Shown one piece after another: positions 3,027 through 14,178 of a stretch of 14,352 nucleotides of DNA. This stretch comes from Promethearchaeota archaeon (GTDB taxonomy: Archaea; Asgardarchaeota; Lokiarchaeia; Sigyniarchaeales; SOKP01). How positions within the stretch are numbered: the first letter of the stretch is position 1; each line of letters starts with the position of its first letter. The stretch covers positions 1 through 14,352 of the forward strand of contig JAEOTP010000050.1 in assembly GCA_016839765.1 (NCBI GenBank). The letters are read 5' to 3'. A program made the translations under genes and the position numbers. The notes beneath the pieces are model-generated. The model was not told the DNA's origin. It ran no database searches and saw only the letters and a list, made by a program, of their open reading frames with translations.

Positions 3027-3062
3027 AAATTAAGATTTGAAATAAGATAATTGGTGCCTTAT

Positions 3063-4076
3063 ATGATTATACGTTCGAAAGCCCCTTTTAGAGTGAGTTT
3101 TGGAGGGGGAGGTACTGATATGGCACCTTATTGCACAGAACATGGAGGTTGTGTAATTAATTCAACAATCGACCGCCATGTATTTATTACAATTAAACCT
3201 CGAAATGATAACAAGATTAGAGTGATTTCCACGGATTATGATGAAGATTATAAATTTAAAGTTGGAGATAACAATTATTCTAAGGGTTATGAGTTATTTA
3301 AGGGTACAGTTAATGTCTTGGAAATCAGAGATGGGTTTGATATTGTTGTGTCTTCAGAATTACCTGCTGGTTCGGGGATGGGTGGATCTTCTACTCTATG
3401 TGTTGCACTTATAGGAGCATTTAATGAATTCTATACATTGAACTTGACAAAACATGAAATTGCTCAAAAAGCTTATGATATTGAAAGAGTTGAGTTAAAG
3501 CAGAAAGGAGGATATCAAGATCAATTTGCTGCTGCTTATGGGGGCTTCAATTTTATTGAATTCACAGATATAGTAAAGATATTTCCAATAAACACAACAG
3601 TAGATATGATTAACGAGATACAATATAGAACAATTTTATGTTATGTAGGTGGTTCTCATTTTTCTTCGGACATCCAAGATGAAGTATTAAAAGGTTATAA
3701 AGTTGAAAAGAAATCTTTTATTGAAACAATGCAGGACCTAAAAAATGTTGCATATGAAATGAGAACAATAGTTGAATCTAAAGATGTGAGTAAATTAGAT
3801 CAGTTTGGGGAACTTATTCATAAAGGATGGTTAGCTAAGAAAAGTCTTAGTTCGAAAATCACAAATGAAAACATAAAAAATTTCTATTTAACCTCAAGAA
3901 AATTTGGCGTAATTGGTGGTAAATTACTTGGTGCAGGAGGAGGTGGACATCTTCTTCTCTTTTCAGATCCTGATAAAAAATTTGATGTTATTCATGAATT
4001 AAAAAAAATTGGAGGAGTTATAGTAAATTTTCATTTTAATCCCAAAGGATTAGAAGTTTGGAAATATAATATTTAG
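3063..4076 (+). CDS. hddA: D-glycero-alpha-D-manno-heptose-7-phosphate kinase (GHMP kinase, HddA family)
   Basis: N-terminal APFRVSFGGGGTD, GHMP motif LPAGSGMGGSS, GGYQDQFAAAYGG, GGKLLGAGGGG; adjacent to gmhA/gmhB. Start moved from TTG 3051 to ATG 3063, which has an SD-like GGTG at 3053-3056. Confidence 0.88.
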   Translation: MIIRSKAPFRVSFGGGGTDMAPYCTEHGGCVINSTIDRHVFITIKPRNDNKIRVISTDYDEDYKFKVGDNNYSKGYELFKGTVNVLEIRDGFDIVVSSELPAGSGMGGSSTLCVALIGAFNEFYTLNLTKHEIAQKAYDIERVELKQKGGYQDQFAAAYGGFNFIEFTDIVKIFPINTTVDMINEIQYRTILCYVGGSHFSSDIQDEVLKGYKVEKKSFIETMQDLKNVAYEMRTIVESKDVSKLDQFGELIHKGWLAKKSLSSKITNENIKNFYLTSRKFGVIGGKLLGAGGGGHLLLFSDPDKKFDVIHELKKIGGVIVNFHFNPKGLEVWKYNI

Positions 4077-4105
4077 ATGTAAAGATAAAATATAAAGTGA
4101 TATTT

Positions 4106-4672
4106 ATGGAAAATGAAATAATTTCTATATTGAATGAAAGTATCAAAATTAAGGAAGATATTAAAGAGCTAACCCCTCTAATAGTAAAAGTTTCTAAAGA
4201 AATTATAAAGGCATATAGAAATAAGAAAAAAGTTGTATTATTTGGAAATGGTGGAAGTGCTGCAGATGCACAACACATTGCTGCAGAATTTGTAGGAAAA
4301 TTCTATAAAGATCGTGAATCCCTTCCTGCTTTAGCATTTCACACAAACACATCTGTAGTTACAGCAACTGCTAATGACTATGGTTATGATTTTATATTTG
4401 AAAGACAAGTTTCTTCTTTTGTTGAGGCGGGAGATATTGCTATAGGAATTAGTACTTCTGGAAATTCTCCTAATGTTATAAAGGGATTAATCAAGGCTAA
4501 AGAGAAGGGAGCAATTACTGTAGGTTTTACGGGACAAAAAGAAAATCAGACCGAAAAAGTTGTAGATTATTGCCTAAAGATGCCTTCTACAGATACACCA
4601 AGAATTCAGGAAGGGCATATCACTGTGGGGCATATTATATGTTATTTAGTTGAAAAAGAACTATTTAGTTAA
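4106..4672 (+). CDS. gmhA: Phosphoheptose (sedoheptulose-7-phosphate) isomerase, SIS fold
   Basis: GNGGSAADAQHIAAEF, NDYGY, STSGNSPNV, TPRIQEGH. ATG 4106 is preferred; GTG 4097 is the alternative start. Confidence 0.95.
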   Translation: MENEIISILNESIKIKEDIKELTPLIVKVSKEIIKAYRNKKKVVLFGNGGSAADAQHIAAEFVGKFYKDRESLPALAFHTNTSVVTATANDYGYDFIFERQVSSFVEAGDIAIGISTSGNSPNVIKGLIKAKEKGAITVGFTGQKENQTEKVVDYCLKMPSTDTPRIQEGHITVGHIICYLVEKELFS

Positions 4673-4690: not shown

Positions 4691-5251
4691 ATGATAACCG
4701 ATAATAAAGCGATTTTTCTAGATAGAGACGGAGTTATAAATGAAGAAGTCAGTTATCTCTCTAATCCTGACAACCTTAAGTTAATTGAAGGATCTACTGA
4801 AGCTTTAAGAATTCTTAAGAATTTAGGCTATTTTCTAATTGTAATAACTAATCAAGCGGGAATAGCGAGAGGATATTATACAGAAGAAACTCTTAAGAAA
4901 ATTCATAATAAGATGATTCAAATTTTAGAACAAAATAGTATAGAACTCGATGATATATTTTATTGTCCTCATCATCCTGATTTTACAGGACCGTGTAATT
5001 GCAGAAAACCTAACCCTGGGATGATATTACAAGCAAAAGAAAAATATAATATTAACTTAAGAGAATCTTTTATGGTTGGGGATACATTAAATGATATTAA
5101 AACGGGTTTAGCAGCTGAATGCCAAACGGTATTAGTTTTAACTGGTTATGGGATTGAAGAAAAGAAGAAGATTGATGATGTAATACCTGATTATATTTTT
5201 ACTAATTTATTGGAATTTGCTAAAAATTTAAAATTAGATTCAAAATTATAG
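4691..5251 (+). CDS. gmhB: D-glycero-D-manno-heptose-1,7-bisphosphate 7-phosphatase (HAD IIIA)
   Basis: FLDRDGVIN, TNQAGIARG, zinc motif CPHHP...CNCRKP, MVGD; follows gmhA. Confidence 0.92.
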   Translation: MITDNKAIFLDRDGVINEEVSYLSNPDNLKLIEGSTEALRILKNLGYFLIVITNQAGIARGYYTEETLKKIHNKMIQILEQNSIELDDIFYCPHHPDFTGPCNCRKPNPGMILQAKEKYNINLRESFMVGDTLNDIKTGLAAECQTVLVLTGYGIEEKKKIDDVIPDYIFTNLLEFAKNLKLDSKL

Positions 5252-5281: not shown

Positions 5282-5938
5282 ATGAAATTCTTTATAGATA
5301 CCGCTAATTTAGACCAAATTAAAGAAATGCAAGATTTGGGAATAATTGATGGAGTAACCACCAATCCTACATTGTTATCAAAAGAGGGTGCTGAGCCTAT
5401 AGAACAACTAAAAAAAATTTGTGAAATAGTAGATGGACCCATAAGTGCAGAAGTTGTTGGATTAAAAACAGAAGAAATGGTTAAAGAGGCAAGAGAGTTA
5501 GCTAAAATCGCTCCTAATATTGTTATTAAAATTCCAATGACAAGAGATGGCATTAAAGCTGTTAAAATTCTTGAGTCAGAAGGAATCAAAACTAATGTGA
5601 CATTAGTTTTTTCCCAGAATCAAGTCTTAATCGCAGCTAAAGCGGGTGCTTCCTATATAAGTCCCTTTATTGGGAGATTAATGGATGATGGACAAGATGA
5701 GATTGATATGCTATGGGAAACCATGGATATTATTAAAGCTTATAATTTTAAATCTGAATTAATAGTAGCTTCTGTAAGAAATTCCAGACATGTAATTGAA
5801 GCTGCAAAGATGGGGGCTCACATCGCAACAATTCCTTTTAATGTACTTGAAAAAATGTTCAAACATCCTAGAACAGACCAAGGTTTAGATGCATTTCTTA
5901 AAGATTGGGAAAAGTTACAAGCTCAATTAAAAAAATAA
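5282..5938 (+). CDS. tal: Transaldolase (short TalC/FSA-like family)
   Basis: FIDTAN, GVTTNP, Schiff-base Lys in VIKIP, TNVTL. Glu in SAEV and Phe in SPFIGR are the transaldolase-type residues (FSA has Gln/Tyr). Confidence 0.93.
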
Positions 5939-5951
5939 TCAAGATTTAAAA

Positions 5952-6947
5952 ATGGATTTAATTGAATTGATACCTAAATGGAAGAATAAAAAAGTCTTAG
6001 TAATAGGAGAAGCATTAATAGATAGATATATTTTTGGACAAGCTGATAGGATTTCTCCTGACGCTCCGATCCCTAATGTAAAAATTGAACGCCACGAGAC
6101 TTATTTAGGGGCTATTGGCTTAGTTTTACAATTTATAAAGTCATTAGGTGGAAATCCTGAGCTTTGCACAATTGTAGGTGACGATTATGAAGGTGATTTC
6201 TTTGTCAAAAAAATCGAAGCTTTGAACGTTGATTCTTCGAATATTATTATTGATAGTGATACTAACACTCCCCAGATTACTCGAATAAAAGCGATGAACC
6301 AACATTTATTAAGACTTGAAACAGATTATACAACAGAGATTTCACCTACCGCTATTAACGATTTGATTGGCACAATTCAAACGGGTTATGAAAATATTGA
6401 TTCAATTATAATTTTGGATTATGGTGCTGGTGGTCTTTTTCAATATGATTTTATATCGAGATTATTGAGTACTTTAAAAGAAAAACATAAAGAGATTCCC
6501 ATACTAGCGCGTCCGAATGTATCAAATTACTACCTTTATGAAGATATTGATTTAATAAAGATTAATTTACAAAAAGCGTTAACCAATTTTTCAATAGATT
6601 GTTGTACTGAAACTAGTATCATTATTGCTGGTAAGCGTATTATCAACTCATCCAAATGTAAAAATTTACTTCTAAACTATTTAGAAACCGATTCTTTTCT
6701 TTTTTATAAAGATCAAGAAAAGGTTGAAAAAATAAAACCGATTTTAAACCAACCTGTTAGAAGCCATGTGGCAGTTGGTAGTTCTATTATAGCAGTTTTA
6801 GGCTTAACTTATGCTTCTAACATTCCTGTTTTAGAAGGGGCAAAAATTGCTATGTCTGCAGCAGCACTTTCGGCAACTTTTCCACCAGTAGAATTTTTTA
6901 ATTCAGAAACTCTCAAGAATTATATTTCAACAAATTTTGTAGACTAA
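5952..6947 (+). CDS. HldE/RfaE kinase-domain-like PfkB-fold protein, probably catalytically inactive
   Basis: VLVIGEALIDRYIFGQADRISPDAPIP matches the HldE GDVMLDRY..RISPEAPVP motif; QHLLRLE and LDYGAG also match. The NxxE and GAGD motifs are degenerate. Confidence 0.85.
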   Translation: MDLIELIPKWKNKKVLVIGEALIDRYIFGQADRISPDAPIPNVKIERHETYLGAIGLVLQFIKSLGGNPELCTIVGDDYEGDFFVKKIEALNVDSSNIIIDSDTNTPQITRIKAMNQHLLRLETDYTTEISPTAINDLIGTIQTGYENIDSIIILDYGAGGLFQYDFISRLLSTLKEKHKEIPILARPNVSNYYLYEDIDLIKINLQKALTNFSIDCCTETSIIIAGKRIINSSKCKNLLLNYLETDSFLFYKDQEKVEKIKPILNQPVRSHVAVGSSIIAVLGLTYASNIPVLEGAKIAMSAAALSATFPPVEFFNSETLKNYISTNFVD

Positions 6948-6959
6948 TTATAAAAAATT

Positions 6960-7817
6960 GTGTATGATTTAGTGAAAATCTCGAAAGAAGATGAAAAACA
7001 GATTTTAGGAGAGATTATTGAGCTTAAAAAAGATATCTTAAAAATGCTATATCAAGCACAATCAGGACACCCAGGAGGCTCATTATCCTGCGTAAATATA
7101 ATCTTTCTACTGTATACTAAAATTATGAGATTTAAAAAGGATAATCCTTTATGGAAAAAGAGAGATATATTTATCTTAAGTAAAGGTCATGCTGCCCCTG
7201 CATTATATGCAGTATTATCTAAAATTGGACTTATCGACAGACAAGAATTATTTACACTTAGGAAATTTGGATCTGATTTACAAGGTCATCCCGTAAAAAA
7301 TCCTAAATTAGGAATAGAGATTTCCACTGGTTCATTAGGAATGGGTTTATCAATAGGAGTCGGATGTGCTTTAGCATCTAAAATAGATAAAAAGCAAAAT
7401 TTGATTTATGTGCTGATTGGTGACGGAGAATTAAATGAAGGTGCAATATGGGAAGCAGCAATGGCAGCAAGTCATTACAAATTGGATAATTTAATTGCGA
7501 TTGTAGACCGTAATGGTATTCAGATAGATGGATCAACTGAAGAAATTATGGCGTTAGAACCCCTAGCTGAAAAATGGAAAGCCTTTGGCTGGGAAGTAAT
7601 AGAAGTGGATGGTTCAAATCTCAATGATATAATTCAAGGATTTGAAAAATCTAAAAAAATTTTAAGAAAACCTAAAGTAATAATTTTTTACCTTATCAAG
7701 GGCTCAGAGGTCTCATTCATGGAGCACACTAGAAAATTTCATGGAAGGGCGCCTAATAAGGAAGAATATGAGACAGCAATTATCGAGCTTGAAAAAATTA
7801 AAAAAGATTTAGTTTGA
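6960..7817 (+). CDS. Transketolase, N-terminal (ThDP-binding) subunit
   Basis: SGHPGGSLS, LSKGHAAP, LQGHP, STGSLGMGLS, ThDP motif GDGELNEG...N, C-terminal HG; GTG start. Confidence 0.95.
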   Translation: MYDLVKISKEDEKQILGEIIELKKDILKMLYQAQSGHPGGSLSCVNIIFLLYTKIMRFKKDNPLWKKRDIFILSKGHAAPALYAVLSKIGLIDRQELFTLRKFGSDLQGHPVKNPKLGIEISTGSLGMGLSIGVGCALASKIDKKQNLIYVLIGDGELNEGAIWEAAMAASHYKLDNLIAIVDRNGIQIDGSTEEIMALEPLAEKWKAFGWEVIEVDGSNLNDIIQGFEKSKKILRKPKVIIFYLIKGSEVSFMEHTRKFHGRAPNKEEYETAIIELEKIKKDLV

Positions 7818-7827
7818 GGTAAATTAA

Positions 7828-8763
7828 ATGGAAGAAAAATTACTTCGCGACACTTTTGGAGACTATTTAGTGAAAGTGGGTAAAAATAATGCAGATCTTG
7901 TGGTATTAGATGCTGATTTGTCCACTTCAACAAGAACCAACAAATTTGCTAATGAATTTCCACACAGATTTTTTAATATGGGGATTGCCGAACAGAACAT
8001 GGTTGGTGTAGCTTTAGGTTTTGCTATTTCTGGTAAAGTTCCGGTAGTTAGTGGTTTCTCGATATTTACTACAGGAAGAGCTTGGGAGTTTATACGGTTA
8101 GCTTCTCATGACAATTTGAACATTAAATTCATAACCACCCATGCGGGTATTGTGGGTGAAGATGGAAGCACTCATCATGCTCTAGAGGACTTGAGTTTAA
8201 TGTCTGTTTTACCTAATTTGAATGTTTTAGTACCTTCTGATAATATTGAGCTGAATGAGATTTTGGATTATGCTTTAAAATCCCACGGGCCTTTTTATAT
8301 AAGACTGCCGAGAGGATCTTTTCCAAAGATTCATAATCAAGATTATAATTTTACACTTGGAAAACCTGACATATTGAAAGAGGGGAATGATATCTGCTTA
8401 ATAGCAGCTGGATATGGTAATTTTTTAGCCTTGGAATCAATATCAAAAATTGAAAAAGAGTTAAATATCTCCGCGAAAGTTATTAATCTTCCCAGTATAA
8501 AACCAATTGACAAAGAAGCTTTAATAAAAGAAGTAAATGATATGAAAGCTATAATAGTAATTGAAGAACATAATGTTTATTGTGGATTTGGCTCTATTAT
8601 AACAAGGATAATAACAGAAGTATATCCAATAAAAATAAAATGTATAGGAGTAGAAAATTCATTTGGGTCTTCAGGAAATAGAGAAGACTTATTAAACTTT
8701 TTCAACTTAAATACAGAAAAAATAATTGAAGAAATTAAATTAATGCTGAAAATAAATGTTTAA
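7828..8763 (+). CDS. Transketolase, C-terminal subunit
   Basis: DADLSTST, GIAEQNM, GEDGSTHH, YIRLPR, IEEH; SD-like GAGGT at 7816-7820 overlaps the upstream stop codon. Confidence 0.95.
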   Translation: MEEKLLRDTFGDYLVKVGKNNADLVVLDADLSTSTRTNKFANEFPHRFFNMGIAEQNMVGVALGFAISGKVPVVSGFSIFTTGRAWEFIRLASHDNLNIKFITTHAGIVGEDGSTHHALEDLSLMSVLPNLNVLVPSDNIELNEILDYALKSHGPFYIRLPRGSFPKIHNQDYNFTLGKPDILKEGNDICLIAAGYGNFLALESISKIEKELNISAKVINLPSIKPIDKEALIKEVNDMKAIIVIEEHNVYCGFGSIITRIITEVYPIKIKCIGVENSFGSSGNREDLLNFFNLNTEKIIEEIKLMLKINV

Positions 8764-8802: not shown

Positions 8803-9426
8803 ATGAAGAAAATCGCAGTATCTATACATGCTAATGAGAATTTTAATCCAGATATTTTAAAAGATTTAAAAGATATAGATTTCATTCACATTGATGTTAT
8901 GGATGGTAAGTTTTTAGATACTTTAAATTTGAATTTAGAAATTTTTAAAGTAGTTAAAGAAAATTTTAACATACCAATATTAGCTCACCTTATGGTGGTG
9001 GATCCATTAAATTACATTAATGCGATCATTGATTATGTTTATGCTTTTCTATTTCATTTTGAAATAGATACAGATATTACCAGCGTTATTAAAGAGGTAA
9101 AAAAACACAACAAAAAAGTAGGTTTAGTAATAAATCCCGTTACTAAAATTTCAGATGTTTTAGAATATCTATCTTTATTAGATATTATTTTGGTTTTGGG
9201 AGTTAATCCAGGATGGTCTGGACAGAAATTCATCCCAGATACTATAATTAAAGTTGAAAATTTAGCGAAATATAAAACAAAATATAATTTTTTAATAGAT
9301 GTTGATGGTGGTATAAACCCTATAACTGCTAAAATGTTGGTAAAAGCGGATATTTTAACAAGCGCAAGCGCAATCTTAAATGCAGATGAACCAAACAAAG
9401 TAATTCAAAAATTGAAAGTTATATAA
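8803..9426 (+). CDS. rpe: Ribulose-phosphate 3-epimerase family protein
   Basis: HIDVMDG, AHLMV, VNPGWSGQKF, DVDGGIN retain the His/Asp/His/Asp metal ligands; co-located with tal and tkt. Confidence 0.9.
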   Translation: MKKIAVSIHANENFNPDILKDLKDIDFIHIDVMDGKFLDTLNLNLEIFKVVKENFNIPILAHLMVVDPLNYINAIIDYVYAFLFHFEIDTDITSVIKEVKKHNKKVGLVINPVTKISDVLEYLSLLDIILVLGVNPGWSGQKFIPDTIIKVENLAKYKTKYNFLIDVDGGINPITAKMLVKADILTSASAILNADEPNKVIQKLKVI

Positions 9427-9543: not shown

Positions 9544-10401
9544 TTATTTCTTATATTTAGAAAGGATTAGACTCAATTTAGAATTATCTCCCCAAAAGGC
9601 CATCGGCACATAATCGAGGTAAGGGAAATATCCTAAATTTAACTTTATATCTTTCTTTTTAGATTCTAAATAATTTTCAATTAATCTTCTAACTGAAATA
9701 GGTTTTCCACTACAACAATTAATAATTCCACAAATCCCATTTTGTAATGATATTTTTACAATATATTCTGCTACTTTTTCTACAGATAAAAAATCTCTCA
9801 ATTGTTCGCCACCAGACATATTAAAAACTTCTGCATTATTTTCCAATGCTTTATCTAATTGTGGAATTAAGGATTTTGAGGATTGGCCTTTTCCACACAT
9901 ATAGAAAAGCCTTATCCATTTAAATTTAAAATCATATATTGGTTTTAATTGATCAATAAATTTTCTAAGAGTATCTTTTGCTAGTGAATAACTAATATTT
10001 GGTTCCGAAGGTAAATCCTCTGATAAGCAACCACTTTGAAATCCATATTCAAAACAAGTTCCCATTACATTCAAATCTTTAAGACCATTAATGACCATGT
10101 TTTTTATAAAATTATAATTAGAGAATAGATTTTTTTCGAAATGAAATAATTCCTTGAAATTCGGTAGCCCTTCCCAAGCCAAATGTATTAATAAATCTGG
10201 CTCTCCAAAGAACTCAAAATAATTTTGTTTACTTTCATTTAGGTTACTCCTAATATATTTCACTTTATTATACCAATTATATTTTTTAGCTTTATCTTGG
10301 TTTGTAGAAGTAGCAATAATCTCGTTTTTCCCCATTTTTAATAATTCTTGAACTACGTAATTGCCAATAAATCCTGTAGCTCCAGTTATAAGAATTCTCA
10401 A
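9544..10401 (-). CDS. Extended SDR, probable NDP-4-keto-6-deoxysugar 4-reductase
   Basis: TGATGFIG, HLAW, GTCFEYG, YxxxK (YSLAK), GGEQLRDFL; TTG start with SD-like GAGGT (complement of 10409-10413); last gene after rfbF-rfbG-epimerase. Confidence 0.85.
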   Translation of the reverse strand: MRILITGATGFIGNYVVQELLKMGKNEIIATSTNQDKAKKYNWYNKVKYIRSNLNESKQNYFEFFGEPDLLIHLAWEGLPNFKELFHFEKNLFSNYNFIKNMVINGLKDLNVMGTCFEYGFQSGCLSEDLPSEPNISYSLAKDTLRKFIDQLKPIYDFKFKWIRLFYMCGKGQSSKSLIPQLDKALENNAEVFNMSGGEQLRDFLSVEKVAEYIVKISLQNGICGIINCCSGKPISVRRLIENYLESKKKDIKLNLGYFPYLDYVPMAFWGDNSKLSLILSKYKK

Positions 10402-10404
10402 CTT

Positions 10405-10956
10405 TTATACCTCAATATCTTTAAAAACTTCAGAAATTAGTTTTAGATTCTTATCTTTTTCTGAAATGTCACTTATTTCTAAAGGCCATTTAATTCCTAT
10501 TTTAGGATCATTATATCTAACCCCTCCTTCATTTTCAGGGCTATAAAATTCTGTCGTAAAATAAATCAACTCTACATCTTTCTCTAAAGATTGAAATCCA
10601 TGAGCAAAACCTTCTGGTATATATAACATTTTCATGTTTTTAGCAGATAATATCTCACTATGATACTTTAAGAATGTTTTGGAATTTTTTCTTAAATCGA
10701 TTGCAACATCAAAGATTGACCCCTTAATACATTTTATTATTTTGATTTCTGCTTTCGGAGGATATTGAAAATGTATTCCTCTAATAGAACCTTTCTTTTT
10801 AGTGACCGAATGATTAATATTAACAATTTCTTTATAATGACCAATTTTTTTTATATCATTTTTACAAAAAACTCTAGCAAACATTCCACGATGGTCTCTA
10901 AAAGGTTCTGGTTCAATTACGTATACATCTTTAATTTTTGTTTTGAAAAATTTCAT
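10405..10956 (-). CDS. rfbC: RmlC/RfbC-like NDP-4-keto-6-deoxyhexose 3(,5)-epimerase (cupin)
   Basis: DHRGMFAR, RGIHFQ, GSIFDVAIDLR, YIPEGFAHGF, YNDPKIGIKWP, ISEKD. Start set to ATG 10956, 4 nt after the rfbG stop. Confidence 0.9.
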   Translation of the reverse strand: MKFFKTKIKDVYVIEPEPFRDHRGMFARVFCKNDIKKIGHYKEIVNINHSVTKKKGSIRGIHFQYPPKAEIKIIKCIKGSIFDVAIDLRKNSKTFLKYHSEILSAKNMKMLYIPEGFAHGFQSLEKDVELIYFTTEFYSPENEGGVRYNDPKIGIKWPLEISDISEKDKNLKLISEVFKDIEV

Positions 10957-10960
10957 AATA

Positions 10961-12040
10961 TCAAGTGATATAATTTTTAAAATACTCATTTATAAGTTTA
11001 ACATTATAATCATAATCGATATCTTCATAAAAATACCAATCACATGTGAATTTTATAGCATCATCTAAATTTATTGCTGGCTCCCATGCTAAATATTTTT
11101 TAGCTTTAGTAATATCCAATATTAAAAATTTAGTTTCATGAAAATCATCTTCTATGTTTTCAGATTGAATTTGATAATTGCCTTTCCCTGTGTATTTTAT
11201 AATCTTTTCAATAACTTCTATAACTTTATAAATGTCATATTGATTAGGTCCAAAATTCCATGCACTTGAATAAAAATTATCTCCTTTCCACATTTTCATA
11301 GTTAGCATTAAAAAGCCCCGGAGAGGCTCTAAAACATATTGCCATGGTCTCACTGAATTTGGATTTCTTATGATAAGATCTGTATTATTTTCTATTGCGT
11401 TCATAAAATCTGGGATTAATCTGTCTTCTTGCCAATCTCCTCCACCAATTATATTTCCGCATCTCACAGTAGAAACTATTTTTCTATTTTCAACTGAATT
11501 TTCATTAAAAAAGGATTTTCTATAGGAGGCAGTTATAAGTTCGGAACATGCTTTACTCGAACTATAGGGGTCAAAACCACCAAGTCTATCATTTTCATTA
11601 TATCCTCTTTTTAACTCTAAATTTTCATAACATTTATCTGTTGTAAAATTTATCATCAATTTAGAGCTTTTAGATTTTCTAAAAGCTTCAAATATATTTA
11701 TTGTTCCAATAATGTTTGTTTCAAATGTTTCTTTAGGAAATGTATATGATTTTCTTACAATTGGTTGAGCAGCCAGATGAAAGATTATTTCAGGACGGCA
11801 TATTTTAACAATACCATTAAGTTTATCATAATCTCGAATATCTCCAATAACACTTTCGGTTTTCGCTTCTAAATTAGCTTTAACAAAATTTCCTTTATCA
11901 TTATAAGGGGAGAGTGCATATCCTATTACTTTTGCTCCAAGTTCATTAAGTATAATGGCTAACCAAGAACCAATAAAACCAGTGTGTCCTGTAAGGAGAA
12001 TTTTTTTATCTTCAAAAAATCCTCCAAAAATTTTCTTCAT
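10961..12040 (-). CDS. rfbG: CDP-glucose 4,6-dehydratase
   Basis: TGHTGFIGSW, HLAAQPIVR, TDKCYEN, DPYSSSK, GNIIGGGDW, RPWQYVLEPL, WNFGP, HE. ATG 12040 overlaps the rfbF stop (ATGA). Confidence 0.93.
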   Translation of the reverse strand: MKKIFGGFFEDKKILLTGHTGFIGSWLAIILNELGAKVIGYALSPYNDKGNFVKANLEAKTESVIGDIRDYDKLNGIVKICRPEIIFHLAAQPIVRKSYTFPKETFETNIIGTINIFEAFRKSKSSKLMINFTTDKCYENLELKRGYNENDRLGGFDPYSSSKACSELITASYRKSFFNENSVENRKIVSTVRCGNIIGGGDWQEDRLIPDFMNAIENNTDLIIRNPNSVRPWQYVLEPLRGFLMLTMKMWKGDNFYSSAWNFGPNQYDIYKVIEVIEKIIKYTGKGNYQIQSENIEDDFHETKFLILDITKAKKYLAWEPAINLDDAIKFTCDWYFYEDIDYDYNVKLINEYFKNYIT

Positions 12041-12813
12041 TTCCAATTGTTCCAAAATGCTCTATTTGTATTCCATAATTTATTTAAGTAAATCACATCT
12101 CTTTCATGATCCATACATGACCAACTTCCGTCATATTTATAAACCATTACTTCTCCTTTTTTAGCTAAATCTTCTAACGGTCCATGTTCGAAATCACAAT
12201 CTTCATCAGCACTAAGATAATCTAATAAATCATTATTGAAGACCATAAAACCTCCATTTATTAATCCAACTGATGTTTGTGGCTTCTCTTCAAAAGTTAA
12301 AACTTTCCCGCTTTTTTCATACAACTCTCCAAAACGAGATGGAGGATGAACTCCAGTAATTGTAATAATTTTTCCATGTGATTTATGAAATTCAATTAGA
12401 TTATTGATATTAATGTTGGCTAAACCATCTCCATAAGTTAGCATATTCATTTCAGGATCTAAATATTTTTCTACCCTTTTAATTCTTCCACCTTTTAATG
12501 TATTTAATCCTGTGTCAATTAAAGTAACTTTCCAATCTAACTTATCATTGATATTATGAAATTGGATATTTTCATTTGATAAATCCATTGTGAAATCATT
12601 ATTCTGTATATAGTAATTGTAAAAATAATCCTTAATGATTTCTCCTCTCACTCCTAAGCATATAATAAAATCTTTGTATCCATAATGCGCATAAATTTTC
12701 ATAATATGCCATAATATGGGTTTATTACCTATTTTTACCATTGGTTTTGGAATTAATTCAGTAAGACGACCAAGTCTAGTTCCCCATCCTCCCGCTAATA
12801 CTATAACCTTCAT
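12037..12813 (-). CDS. rfbF: Glucose-1-phosphate cytidylyltransferase family protein
   Basis: LAGGWGTRL, PKPMVKIG, DTG...GGRIKR, LTYGDG, FEEKP, INGGFMV, Trp-rich C-terminus; translationally coupled to rfbG. Confidence 0.9.
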   Translation of the reverse strand: MKVIVLAGGWGTRLGRLTELIPKPMVKIGNKPILWHIMKIYAHYGYKDFIICLGVRGEIIKDYFYNYYIQNNDFTMDLSNENIQFHNINDKLDWKVTLIDTGLNTLKGGRIKRVEKYLDPEMNMLTYGDGLANININNLIEFHKSHGKIITITGVHPPSRFGELYEKSGKVLTFEEKPQTSVGLINGGFMVFNNDLLDYLSADEDCDFEHGPLEDLAKKGEVMVYKYDGSWSCMDHERDVIYLNKLWNTNRAFWNNWK

Positions 12814-13059
12814 TTTTTAAACCTATTCTAGATATTATTAACAAAACATTTCTATAAAATATTATTTGGAATTTTTTGTTTCTTAATCAATTTTTAAAAA
12901 GTATGTTATAATAAAACTTGTTATTTTTTACGAAGAATTTTTCTCTTTAATTTTTTTGATCCTATTCTTGTTTGGAATATTTTATAACTGCCTATTTGCT
13001 TTAATATATTTATATGCAGAAATGGGTAAGAGATGAAAAATTTTGAAGTATTTGGAAAC

Positions 13060-14178
13060 TCAAATTAACTTATTTAAAACTAAATTTAATTTCTTGCTTA
13101 ACTTTTCAATTGTACAACAACTATTAAATAATATATGTGCATTTTCTTTAATTTTATTTCTTAACAATTCATCATTTTTTAACTTAATTATTGAATTTGC
13201 TAAAACTTTTGGGTTAGCAGGTTCACATAAAAGAATATCTTCATTATGCGTCAATAATTCTTTTATTGCCGAGCTTTCACATGTAATCATTGGAATTTTC
13301 ATTGCCATCCCTTCGAATAGTTTATTTGGAATGACTAAAAGAGTTTTTAAATCTTTACCAAATAATCCTAATCCTATGTCAAAATTTGATATCATTTCAG
13401 ATAGTTCATTTAGATTTCCTTTTAGAAAGATTTTTTCAATAAAATTAATATTTTTAAGATTTAATTTTTCTGCTAATTCTTTATTGCTTTTTAATGTCTG
13501 TCCTGTTCCAATTAATTGAAATAAAATATTTTTTTCGTTTTCAATCAGCTTAAATGCTTGAATCATATATTTTACGCCATGTAAAGGTATAAAAGTACCC
13601 CAATATCCAATTATAAATTTATCTTTTGCTTTTTTTTTAATTGGATGAAAAATGTCATCTCTCGCACCAACATAAATTTTTCGAAATTTTTTTAGAGGAA
13701 CTTTATATTTTTCATGAAAATATTTTATGTGTGAAGCTGTATCTAATAAAATATAATTAGATAAATGACACTCCAAGAAATCAAGAAGATAGTAATAAAA
13801 CCAATAATAAATTTTTGGTTTAAACCTCTTTTTAACATTTGCTAATTTACGATCATAAAAATATGTAAGAAGTTTAGAGATAAAAATATCGTGTACAAAA
13901 GGAATTCGCTTGATATAGGCAAAAATTCTAGATAATATAAAATTAATAATTGAAGTCCTTATTGAGTAAAAGATTACAATATCAATTCTTCTTTTTTTAA
14001 ATTTCTTAAAACTTTTTAAAAGTACTTTTATTCTTTGTTTCTTATTAAAGTTAGTAAGATTTATTTGATATACATTAATTCCTTGGTTCCTTAAGCCATT
14101 TATAAAAATGTAATTTCGAGAATAATTCTCATCATAATCACCTATATATAAAACATTTTTTATTTCATTCGAAGGCAT
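13060..14178 (-). CDS. Glycosyltransferase, GT4-like (GT-B fold)
   Basis: YWGTFIPLHGV, LIGTGQ, PNKLFEGMAMKIPMIT typical of the Glycos_transf_1 C-terminal domain; upstream of NDP-sugar genes. Confidence 0.85.
   Translation of the reverse strand: MPSNEIKNVLYIGDYDENYSRNYIFINGLRNQGINVYQINLTNFNKKQRIKVLLKSFKKFKKRRIDIVIFYSIRTSIINFILSRIFAYIKRIPFVHDIFISKLLTYFYDRKLANVKKRFKPKIYYWFYYYLLDFLECHLSNYILLDTASHIKYFHEKYKVPLKKFRKIYVGARDDIFHPIKKKAKDKFIIGYWGTFIPLHGVKYMIQAFKLIENEKNILFQLIGTGQTLKSNKELAEKLNLKNINFIEKIFLKGNLNELSEMISNFDIGLGLFGKDLKTLLVIPNKLFEGMAMKIPMITCESSAIKELLTHNEDILLCEPANPKVLANSIIKLKNDELLRNKIKENAHILFNSCCTIEKLSKKLNLVLNKLI

Follow-up and report, generated by a model that had tools for sequence, protein, structure and literature searches.

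In kinases of the PfkB fold, the Asp of a GXGD motif is the catalytic residue, the glycines of the same motif bind the phosphates of the donor, and an NXXE motif provides the Mg site (PMC5931981). Here we describe a gene, HldX, that lies at positions 5952–6947 on the plus strand of a 14,352-nucleotide stretch of DNA from a Promethearchaeota archaeon of the class Lokiarchaeia (contig JAEOTP010000050.1), and that encodes an HldA/RfaE-domain-I-like PfkB-fold protein of 331 amino acids (aa) without these phosphoryl-transfer motifs. The stretch, hereafter the 14.4-kb window, is one entire contig with a GC content of 29%, from a genome of 3.3 Mb that is 96% complete. The heptose-7-phosphate kinases HldA and HldE are the closest described systems, being the nearest to HldX both by sequence (TIGR02198) and by fold, and they share with it a lid of the form GD..D.Y....RISP(E/D)APVP, the motifs T..TR and LR, and the setting of a heptose operon. 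HldX differs from them in scoring less than half the equivalog cut-off, in the loss of the catalytic Asp, the anion-hole glycines, the TxGxxG loop and the adenine-side Asn, in the replacement D187R, in the loss of the sugar-side residues N57, K109 and K159 and, in Lokiarchaeia, of the NxxE Glu, and in occurring together with HddA in place of HldC.

Three further systems invite comparison. HisZ, a catalytically dead paralogue of histidyl-tRNA synthetase, is the regulatory subunit of HisG, the short-form ATP phosphoribosyltransferase. It resembles HldX as a dead paralogue of an enzyme acting on a pathway metabolite, co-encoded with the enzymes of the pathway, and it reuses its former substrate pocket for sensing; its fold and pathway are unrelated, however, and the HisZ–HisG complex has been demonstrated, whereas a complex of HldX is only proposed. 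Gal3p, a galactokinase-like sensor, and plant FLN1 and FLN2, pfkB-type proteins of the plastid RNA polymerase complex, are likewise regulatory and not catalytic, and two vicinal cysteines of FLN1 are needed for partner binding (PMC3409070). The FLN proteins are of the PfkB type, as is HldX, and a vicinal Cys pair is present both in FLN1 and in the HldX of Lokiarchaeia; unlike HldX, Gal3p and the FLN proteins are eukaryotic, act in transcription-related complexes and have no relation to heptose, and Gal3p has the GHMP fold and still binds ATP. Finally, the pyrophosphate (PPi)-dependent kinases, exemplified by TM0415, have the PfkB fold, an adenosine pocket that is occluded, and additional basic residues where the donor binds; their signature comprises RxGRGD, a Lys placed two residues ahead of the N/D of NXXE, and a pair of bulky residues that close off the adenosine pocket (PMC5931981). 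These kinases keep the catalytic Asp, the NXXE Glu and RxGRGD, and HldX has none of the three.

HldX as a heptose-kinase relative

The HldX reading frame is complete, from an ATG start to a TAA stop, and an earlier note made from the letters of this DNA had correctly described it as unbroken and tightly packed between the transaldolase and transketolase genes: it begins 13 nt after tal and ends 12 nt before tktN. The profile TIGR02198 (rfaE_dom_I) matches HldX with an E value of 1.2e-46 and 159.3 bits, a score that does not reach the curated cut-off of 345 bits, the HldA structure 4e84 in the PDB is matched with an E value of 3.9e-17, and PF00294 scores 36 bits (cut-off 25.8) over the N-terminal residues 13–134 only. 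An AlphaFold2 (AF2) model built from a 132-sequence alignment has a mean predicted local distance difference test (pLDDT) score of 94 and a predicted template modelling (pTM) score of 0.92; its top Foldseek matches are HldA chains, with template modelling (TM) scores of 0.80–0.85, and at least 495 PfkB-type chains in the PDB match it at E<=0.001. HldX is confirmed by these results as a genuine relative of HldA/HldE domain I with the PfkB fold. The locus is also the top HldA-like match of its own genome, the HldA N-terminus was not found in any of the remaining PfkB genes of that genome, and the ESM Atlas, when searched, yielded nothing beyond the protein's own cluster and ordinary kinases of the PfkB type. 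Public records name proteins of the HldX family either hypothetical or 'bifunctional heptose 7-phosphate kinase/heptose 1-phosphate adenyltransferase', a bifunctional HldE label that is almost certainly wrong.

The active site was compared with that of 107 canonical HldA/HldE cluster representatives, all of which have Asp at position 277, using a sample of 25 members of the HldX clade; residue roles are based on family-wide conservation and on PMC5931981, and motif coordinates in the window were checked by translation, by which each of the replacements listed in the earlier note was found in its place. The GAGD anion hole with its catalytic Asp is replaced by AVGS (residues 274–277; 6771–6782, plus strand), so that the Asp position is occupied by Ser277 (6780–6782), as it is in 25/25 clade members. 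The form xVGS is present in all 48 genomic HldX copies, and the clade shows in addition the changes G274 to A (Gly in 107/107 canonical proteins) and D271 to S. The T-x-G-x-x-G nucleotide-phosphate loop has become NYLETDS (6675–6695, plus strand), with the clade-level changes T242 to N, G244 to L and G247 to D or E, the last at a position that is Gly in every canonical representative, and the adenine-side N301, an Asn in 96 of the 107, is L or M. The D-P pair has become R187-P188 (6510–6515, plus strand), a charge reversal that extends across the clade: RP occurs in 48/48 genomic copies, and R187 in 25/25 clade members vs Asp in 102/107 canonical ones. The Mg-binding NxxE motif is replaced by NLQK (residues 205–208; 6564–6575, plus strand), with Lys208 at a position that is Glu in 97/107 canonical representatives; NLQK is found in 41 of the 48 copies from Lokiarchaeia, and the loss is confined to this subclade, the distant members P0128 and L063 retaining NxxE. 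A match to the signature of PPi-dependent kinases was considered and rejected: K203 is present, but residue 272 is H or Y, residue 275 is V, and HldX lacks both the Asp of the motif and the Glu of NXXE.

On the sugar side the picture is mixed, and the description of the substrate-side motif as kept stands only in part. The RISPDAPIP lid or beta-clasp motif (6048–6074, plus strand) is retained, with Glu changed to Asp37 across the clade, as are D24, G53, T106, R111, R121 and D156. The GGAAN motif, on the other hand, is replaced by GAIGL (6108–6122, plus strand), its GG becoming GA and its Asn, N57 (105/107 canonical), becoming L, while K109 (Lys in 104/107) is I, K159 (Lys in 105/107) is A, L or T, and R104 is I; the GG and R104 are near-invariant in canonical HldA. 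HldX of the Lokiarchaeia subclade has in addition a vicinal pair, Cys217-Cys218, in the segment SIDCCTETS (6600–6605, plus strand), which occurs as DCC or ECC in 44/48 copies and in neither the distant clade members nor canonical HldA, and which could form a redox or metal site.

The HldX clade and its conservation

A word-indexed search returned 291 relatives of HldX, the best 120 of which are full-length proteins of 326–346 aa with 60–95% identity, mostly from metagenome-assembled genomes of Lokiarchaeia/Promethearchaeota. In an exhaustive HMMER search the close relatives form one 50% cluster, followed by four full-length distant relatives, P0128, P0131, P0134 and P0135 (32–37% identity), and then by ordinary HldA/HldE; L063, with 35% identity to HldX, is a fifth distant member, and the identity range of the clade extends down to 31–37%. 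A scan of metagenomes yielded mostly canonical GAGD kinases, and no additional member of the clade was identified in it. The 48 genomic HldX copies, 32 of them unique, are 326–333 aa long, and xxGS and RP are common to the 32 unique orthologues and to the five distant Asgard members. In a maximum-likelihood tree, rooted by midpoint only, the xxGS clade is monophyletic (support by the Shimodaira–Hasegawa-like approximate likelihood ratio test, SH-aLRT, 99), with long stems (0.7; 1.06 for the Lokiarchaeia core) and short internal branches; the canonical P0161 is its neighbour (SH-aLRT 96), and the rest of the tree consists of canonical HldA/HldE. The loss of motifs is a trait of the clade, not the decay of a single copy.

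The genes of this clade are under constraint. The median ratio of nonsynonymous to synonymous substitution rates (dN/dS) of HldX is 0.15 over 40 species pairs that are unsaturated across all eight operon genes, and for the same pairs its neighbours have ratios of 0.06 (Tal), 0.08 (GmhA), 0.12 (HddA), 0.12 (TktN), 0.14 (GmhB), 0.16 (TktC) and 0.21 (Rpe); the three pairs closest to the window copy give 0.09–0.17. The frame is intact in all 48 extracted copies; separately, two orthologue matches were reported with one in-frame stop each, G270:C123:5035-6024 (TAG) and G312:C51:4628-5611 (TAA), which may reflect C-terminal overrun of the alignment, errors of assembly or genuine disruption. The suggestion that the gene is retained and not decaying is borne out by these data, with the motif loss present in all orthologues examined and a dN/dS that lies within the 0.06–0.21 range of the neighbours, and the pattern that the earlier note had named as its refutation, neutral drift of this copy beside orthologues that keep GAGD, is not what was found.

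The residues that were replaced are themselves conserved. Our near-invariant set consists of the 54 positions with a conservation of at least 85% among the 107 canonical proteins; 29 of them remain canonical in the clade and 25 are replaced (including D277, D187, E208, G247, G274, N57, K109 and K159). The mean conservation of these 25 replaced sites within the clade is 0.82, vs a background of 0.71, a value reached by only 99 of 10000 random sets, and another 35 positions reach a conservation of at least 95% in the clade while being variable in canonical HldA. On this pattern the old active site is best regarded as re-tooled, not freed from constraint, and, judged by its sequence, HldX has the two properties that mark a pseudoenzyme, the loss of catalytic residues and purifying selection.

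The heptose module and its relatives

In the window, HldX stands in a tight plus-strand row of genes, with spacers of 10–39 nt, in the order aaRS-hddA-gmhA-gmhB-tal-HldX-tktN-tktC-rpe. The row begins with a class-I aminoacyl-tRNA synthetase gene (aaRS, 7–2931) and continues with hddA, a GHMP-type heptose-7-phosphate kinase homologue (3051–4076) that has intact GHMP motifs and scores 235 bits against NF049969, missing the cut-off of 600. It is followed by gmhA, for sedoheptulose-7-phosphate (S7P) isomerase (4097–4672, assigned by family search); gmhB, for heptose-1,7-bisphosphate 7-phosphatase (4691–5251; NF006506, 203 bits, above the cut-off of 178); and tal, for a tal/fsa-type transaldolase (5282–5938; TIGR00875, 304 bits, above cut-off). 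Downstream of HldX lie tktN, the thiamine-diphosphate-binding half of a split transketolase (6960–7817), tktC, its pyrimidine-binding and C-terminal half (7828–8763), and rpe, for ribulose-phosphate 3-epimerase (8803–9426), all three assigned by family search; the two halves are scored as ordinary transketolase by NF004559 (304 and 266 bits). Catalytic motifs are intact in the HddA, GmhA, GmhB, Tal, Tkt and Rpe of the window. HddA, with its motifs intact, is co-encoded with HldX in every case, and the kinase step of the operon can be assigned to this GHMP kinase.

The order hddA-gmhA-(rpe)-gmhB-tal-HldX-tktN-tktC recurs in 16/18 wider loci from 18 genomes. In the other two (g6), tal and gmhB are not at this place, one of them having gmhA-gmhB about 6 kb away, and HldX is directly upstream of tktN in both. 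Among the distant xxGS members, genomic context was seen for L063 only, where the order is gmhB-HldX-tktN-tktC-ATP sulfurylase and the open reading frames (ORFs) of HldX (904–1899) and tktN (1883–2779) overlap by 17 nt as listed. Across the 71 family genomes sampled, HldX is present in 39, TktN in 38 and both in 37, and in all three mismatches (G183, G307 and G304) the gene is truncated at the end of a contig. The module is absent from 19 genomes of the window's own genus, and Transketolase_N has no match in five approximately 100%-complete congeners without the operon. Transketolase in this family therefore appears to occur only within the heptose module, which looks like an accessory, self-supplying unit leading from S7P to heptose, with the transketolase as a private supply of S7P rather than part of a general pentose-phosphate pathway.

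No dedicated gene for the last step of nucleotide-heptose formation was found. The window's own genome has no HddC or HldC above cut-off, and there is no nucleotidyltransferase in the conserved operon neighbourhoods; the top small nucleoside triphosphate (NTP)-transferase of the genome (G000:C67, 242 aa) belongs to the core genes, occurring in 64/71 family genomes, and is not linked to the operon. The NTP-transferase on the minus strand of the window was considered as an HddC and rejected, being a glucose-1-phosphate cytidylyltransferase that scores above its own cut-off.

That gene (12037–12813; TIGR02623, 325 bits) belongs to a minus-strand block (9544–14178) in which a set of deoxysugar genes of the CDP-glucose type is joined by a gene for a GT1 glycosyltransferase. 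The other members are an epimerase/reductase of the short-chain dehydrogenase/reductase (SDR) type (9544–10401), an RmlC-like 3,5-epimerase (10405–10989; TIGR01221, 191 bits, above cut-off), a CDP-glucose 4,6-dehydratase (10961–12055; TIGR02622, 440 bits, above cut-off) and the GT1 glycosyltransferase itself (13060–14178). Dehydratase, epimerase and SDR genes of this set are also near the operon in two further genomes (L051 and L056). A 158-aa ORF on the plus strand (13043–13519), antisense to the GT1 gene and without a family match, is probably a chance ORF of AT-rich DNA. In other genomes the flanks carry GDP-mannose-dehydratase-like, sulfate-activation, GT2, GtrA and methyltransferase genes, and this flanking gene content points to a location of the operon within a surface-glycan island. 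ATP sulfurylase is near the operon in several genomes (L046, 168–3156; L050, 601–3189; L063, 3970–5133), with a phosphodiesterase/sulfatase-like gene beside it in L046 and L050 and an adenosine-5'-phosphosulfate kinase in L046; the ATP sulfurylase neighbourhood hints that the glycan made from the module's heptose is sulfated.

Heptose operons with a built-in supply of S7P recur outside the Asgard archaea. On four contigs of bacteria, including the candidate phyla radiation (L143, L080, L137 and L154), a canonical GAGD HldA/HldE is clustered with gmhA and with tktN-tktC or tal, and L075 has heptose genes beside split transketolase or transaldolase, together with hddA and a nucleotidyltransferase gene. 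Another Asgard family, G295, has an HldA-like gene (L196 672-1667, G295:C371) directly upstream of tktN, whose product has RP, has lost the NxxE Glu and has a shortened anion hole, TQGD, in which the Asp is kept; the 94%-complete G295 genome contains no HddA orthologue, its best GHMP match scoring 59 bits vs 235 for the HddA of the window. P0138 (GYWD, KP), likewise from another Asgard lineage, is a similar intermediate, with the NxxE Glu lost and the Asp kept. The simplest history would be that an ancestral heptose operon had an HldA-type kinase before tktN, that the GHMP kinase HddA came in later and took over, and that the displaced kinase was kept and remodelled.

Possible roles of HldX

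The reading that we favour, tentatively and at a little short of an even chance, is that HldX does not act as a kinase and instead serves the heptose/S7P module as an accessory or regulatory protein that binds a ligand. The clade to which it belongs is specific to Asgard archaea and descends from active HldA-type heptose-7-phosphate kinases. It has kept the PfkB fold, together with the lid that forms the dimer and a pocket core of D24, G53, R111, R121 and D156. What it has replaced are the Asp of catalysis, the glycines of the anion hole and the nucleotide loop, and in Lokiarchaeia also the Glu that binds Mg. HldX would have stopped transferring phosphate from ATP, a reaction made unlikely by its missing adenosine and Mg-ATP elements and by the charge reversal near the old point of phosphoryl transfer. 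With pocket core and lid kept, HldX may still bind a sugar phosphate, heptose or sedoheptulose phosphate and possibly the 1-phosphorylated product, since D187R in all members and E208K in Lokiarchaeia place basic residues where Mg-ATP sat and would suit a 1-phosphate or other anion. In this role it might tune flux, either through the supply of S7P by the transketolase and transaldolase of the operon or through the hand-over of S7P to GmhA-HddA-GmhB, with a regulatory logic like that of HisZ or Gal3p.

Several observations weigh against this proposal. The alteration of N57, K109 and K159 means that the ligand may not be heptose 7-phosphate (H7P), and the NxxE kept in distant members hints at a retained Mg-phosphate site. 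The position next to tktN may have been inherited and by itself is no proof of a partnership with transketolase; adjacency to tkt, taken alone, is not evidence of such a link, as an Asp-keeping Asgard relative is also directly upstream of tktN and canonical kinases lie in clusters with tkt or tal in bacteria. A fused HldX–TktN AF2 model, a weak test in that it was an in-frame read-through with stops as Gly, unpaired rows, no TktC and no dimer, reached a pTM of 0.64, with both halves folded and no confident mutual placement. Rate covariation among the eight operon proteins gave no partner for HldX, and even TktN and TktC reached a partial r of only 0.08. Of the roles suggested in the earlier note, sensor, regulator and scaffold stay plausible, whereas that of a non-catalytic subunit, joined to an active HldA paralogue in a kinase heteromer, has become unlikely and was rejected, since none of the 71 family genomes has a second HldA-like match (E<=1e-10).

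Among the alternatives, a neofunctionalised enzyme, in which the pocket with Ser277, Arg187 and Lys208 or the retained NxxE catalyses another heptose-phosphate reaction, is unlikely but far from negligible. Candidates would be a phospho-Ser heptose-phosphate mutase, an anomerase or the step that forms nucleoside diphosphate (NDP)-heptose, for which the operon has no dedicated gene; that last gap, with the genome's best nucleotidyltransferase being core and unlinked, speaks for such an enzyme, as do the former active site being among the most conserved parts of HldX and the NxxE kept in distant members. Yet HddA and GmhB already cover the path from H7P to heptose 1-phosphate, so a mutase would be redundant, a generalist nucleotidyltransferase could supply the last step, and the loss of NxxE in Lokiarchaeia speaks against Mg-dependent phosphoryl chemistry there. 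Precedent for such chemistry on the PfkB fold was not found in the literature, and the more specific claim that a PfkB-fold protein with Asp changed to Ser and the Mg-ATP site changed to Arg/Lys carries out a reaction new to the fold, be it mutase or NDP-heptose formation, is one that we would hold as doubtful. There is a slim chance that HldX is still a heptose-7-phosphate kinase, working by an unconventional mechanism or with PPi, polyphosphate or another donor. The ribokinase family has evolved ADP and PPi donors (PMC5931981), HldX has gained the basic residues R187 and K208 and has K203 two residues before N205, and the degenerate-anion-hole form of G295, Asp kept, sits upstream of tktN in a genome without an HddA orthologue; HldX, however, has neither RxGRGD nor the catalytic Asp nor the Glu of NXXE, with Y/H272, V275, S277 and K208 in their stead, the universal G247 and G274 are gone, and an intact HddA always accompanies it.

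A purely structural role without a ligand, as a scaffold for the split transketolase or some other enzyme of the operon or as a factor in its assembly, would be favoured by the invariable position of HldX immediately before tktN, which holds also for L063 with its 35% identity and its 17-nt overlap. We regard it as improbable, since the buried D24 and G53 and the conserved positions of the former active site fit ligand binding better than a surface interface, the fused-chain model reached only the pTM given above, and split transketolase elsewhere (L143) does without such a partner. A functionless, decaying relic of the displaced kinase, to which the missing catalytic motifs and the redundancy of a second kinase beside HddA might point, has a practically negligible chance of being correct in view of the intact frames, the dN/dS of 0.09–0.17, the hyper-conserved replaced sites and the persistence of the clade to 31–37% identity. 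On the first three of these grounds the candidate assignment as a pseudogene was rejected.

That HldX is real and conserved is solidly established. A described pseudoenzyme of the HldA/HldE family was not found in the literature searched, and should HldX indeed be a dead kinase that senses a ligand, it would, to judge from that literature, be the first one described in the heptose-kinase family, as well as a rare prokaryotic PfkB-fold protein recruited as a regulator. The HldE label that it carries in public records would mislead metabolic reconstructions and surveys of heptose producers. The relatives assembled here form a natural series for the repurposing of a kinase site, from canonical GAGD through the degenerate forms that keep the Asp (QGD and YWD) to xxGS. 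HldX itself sits in an accessory module of the Lokiarchaeia, which belong to the archaea most closely related to eukaryotes, a module whose own transketolase, transaldolase and epimerase apparently serve only the synthesis of heptose for a surface glycan.

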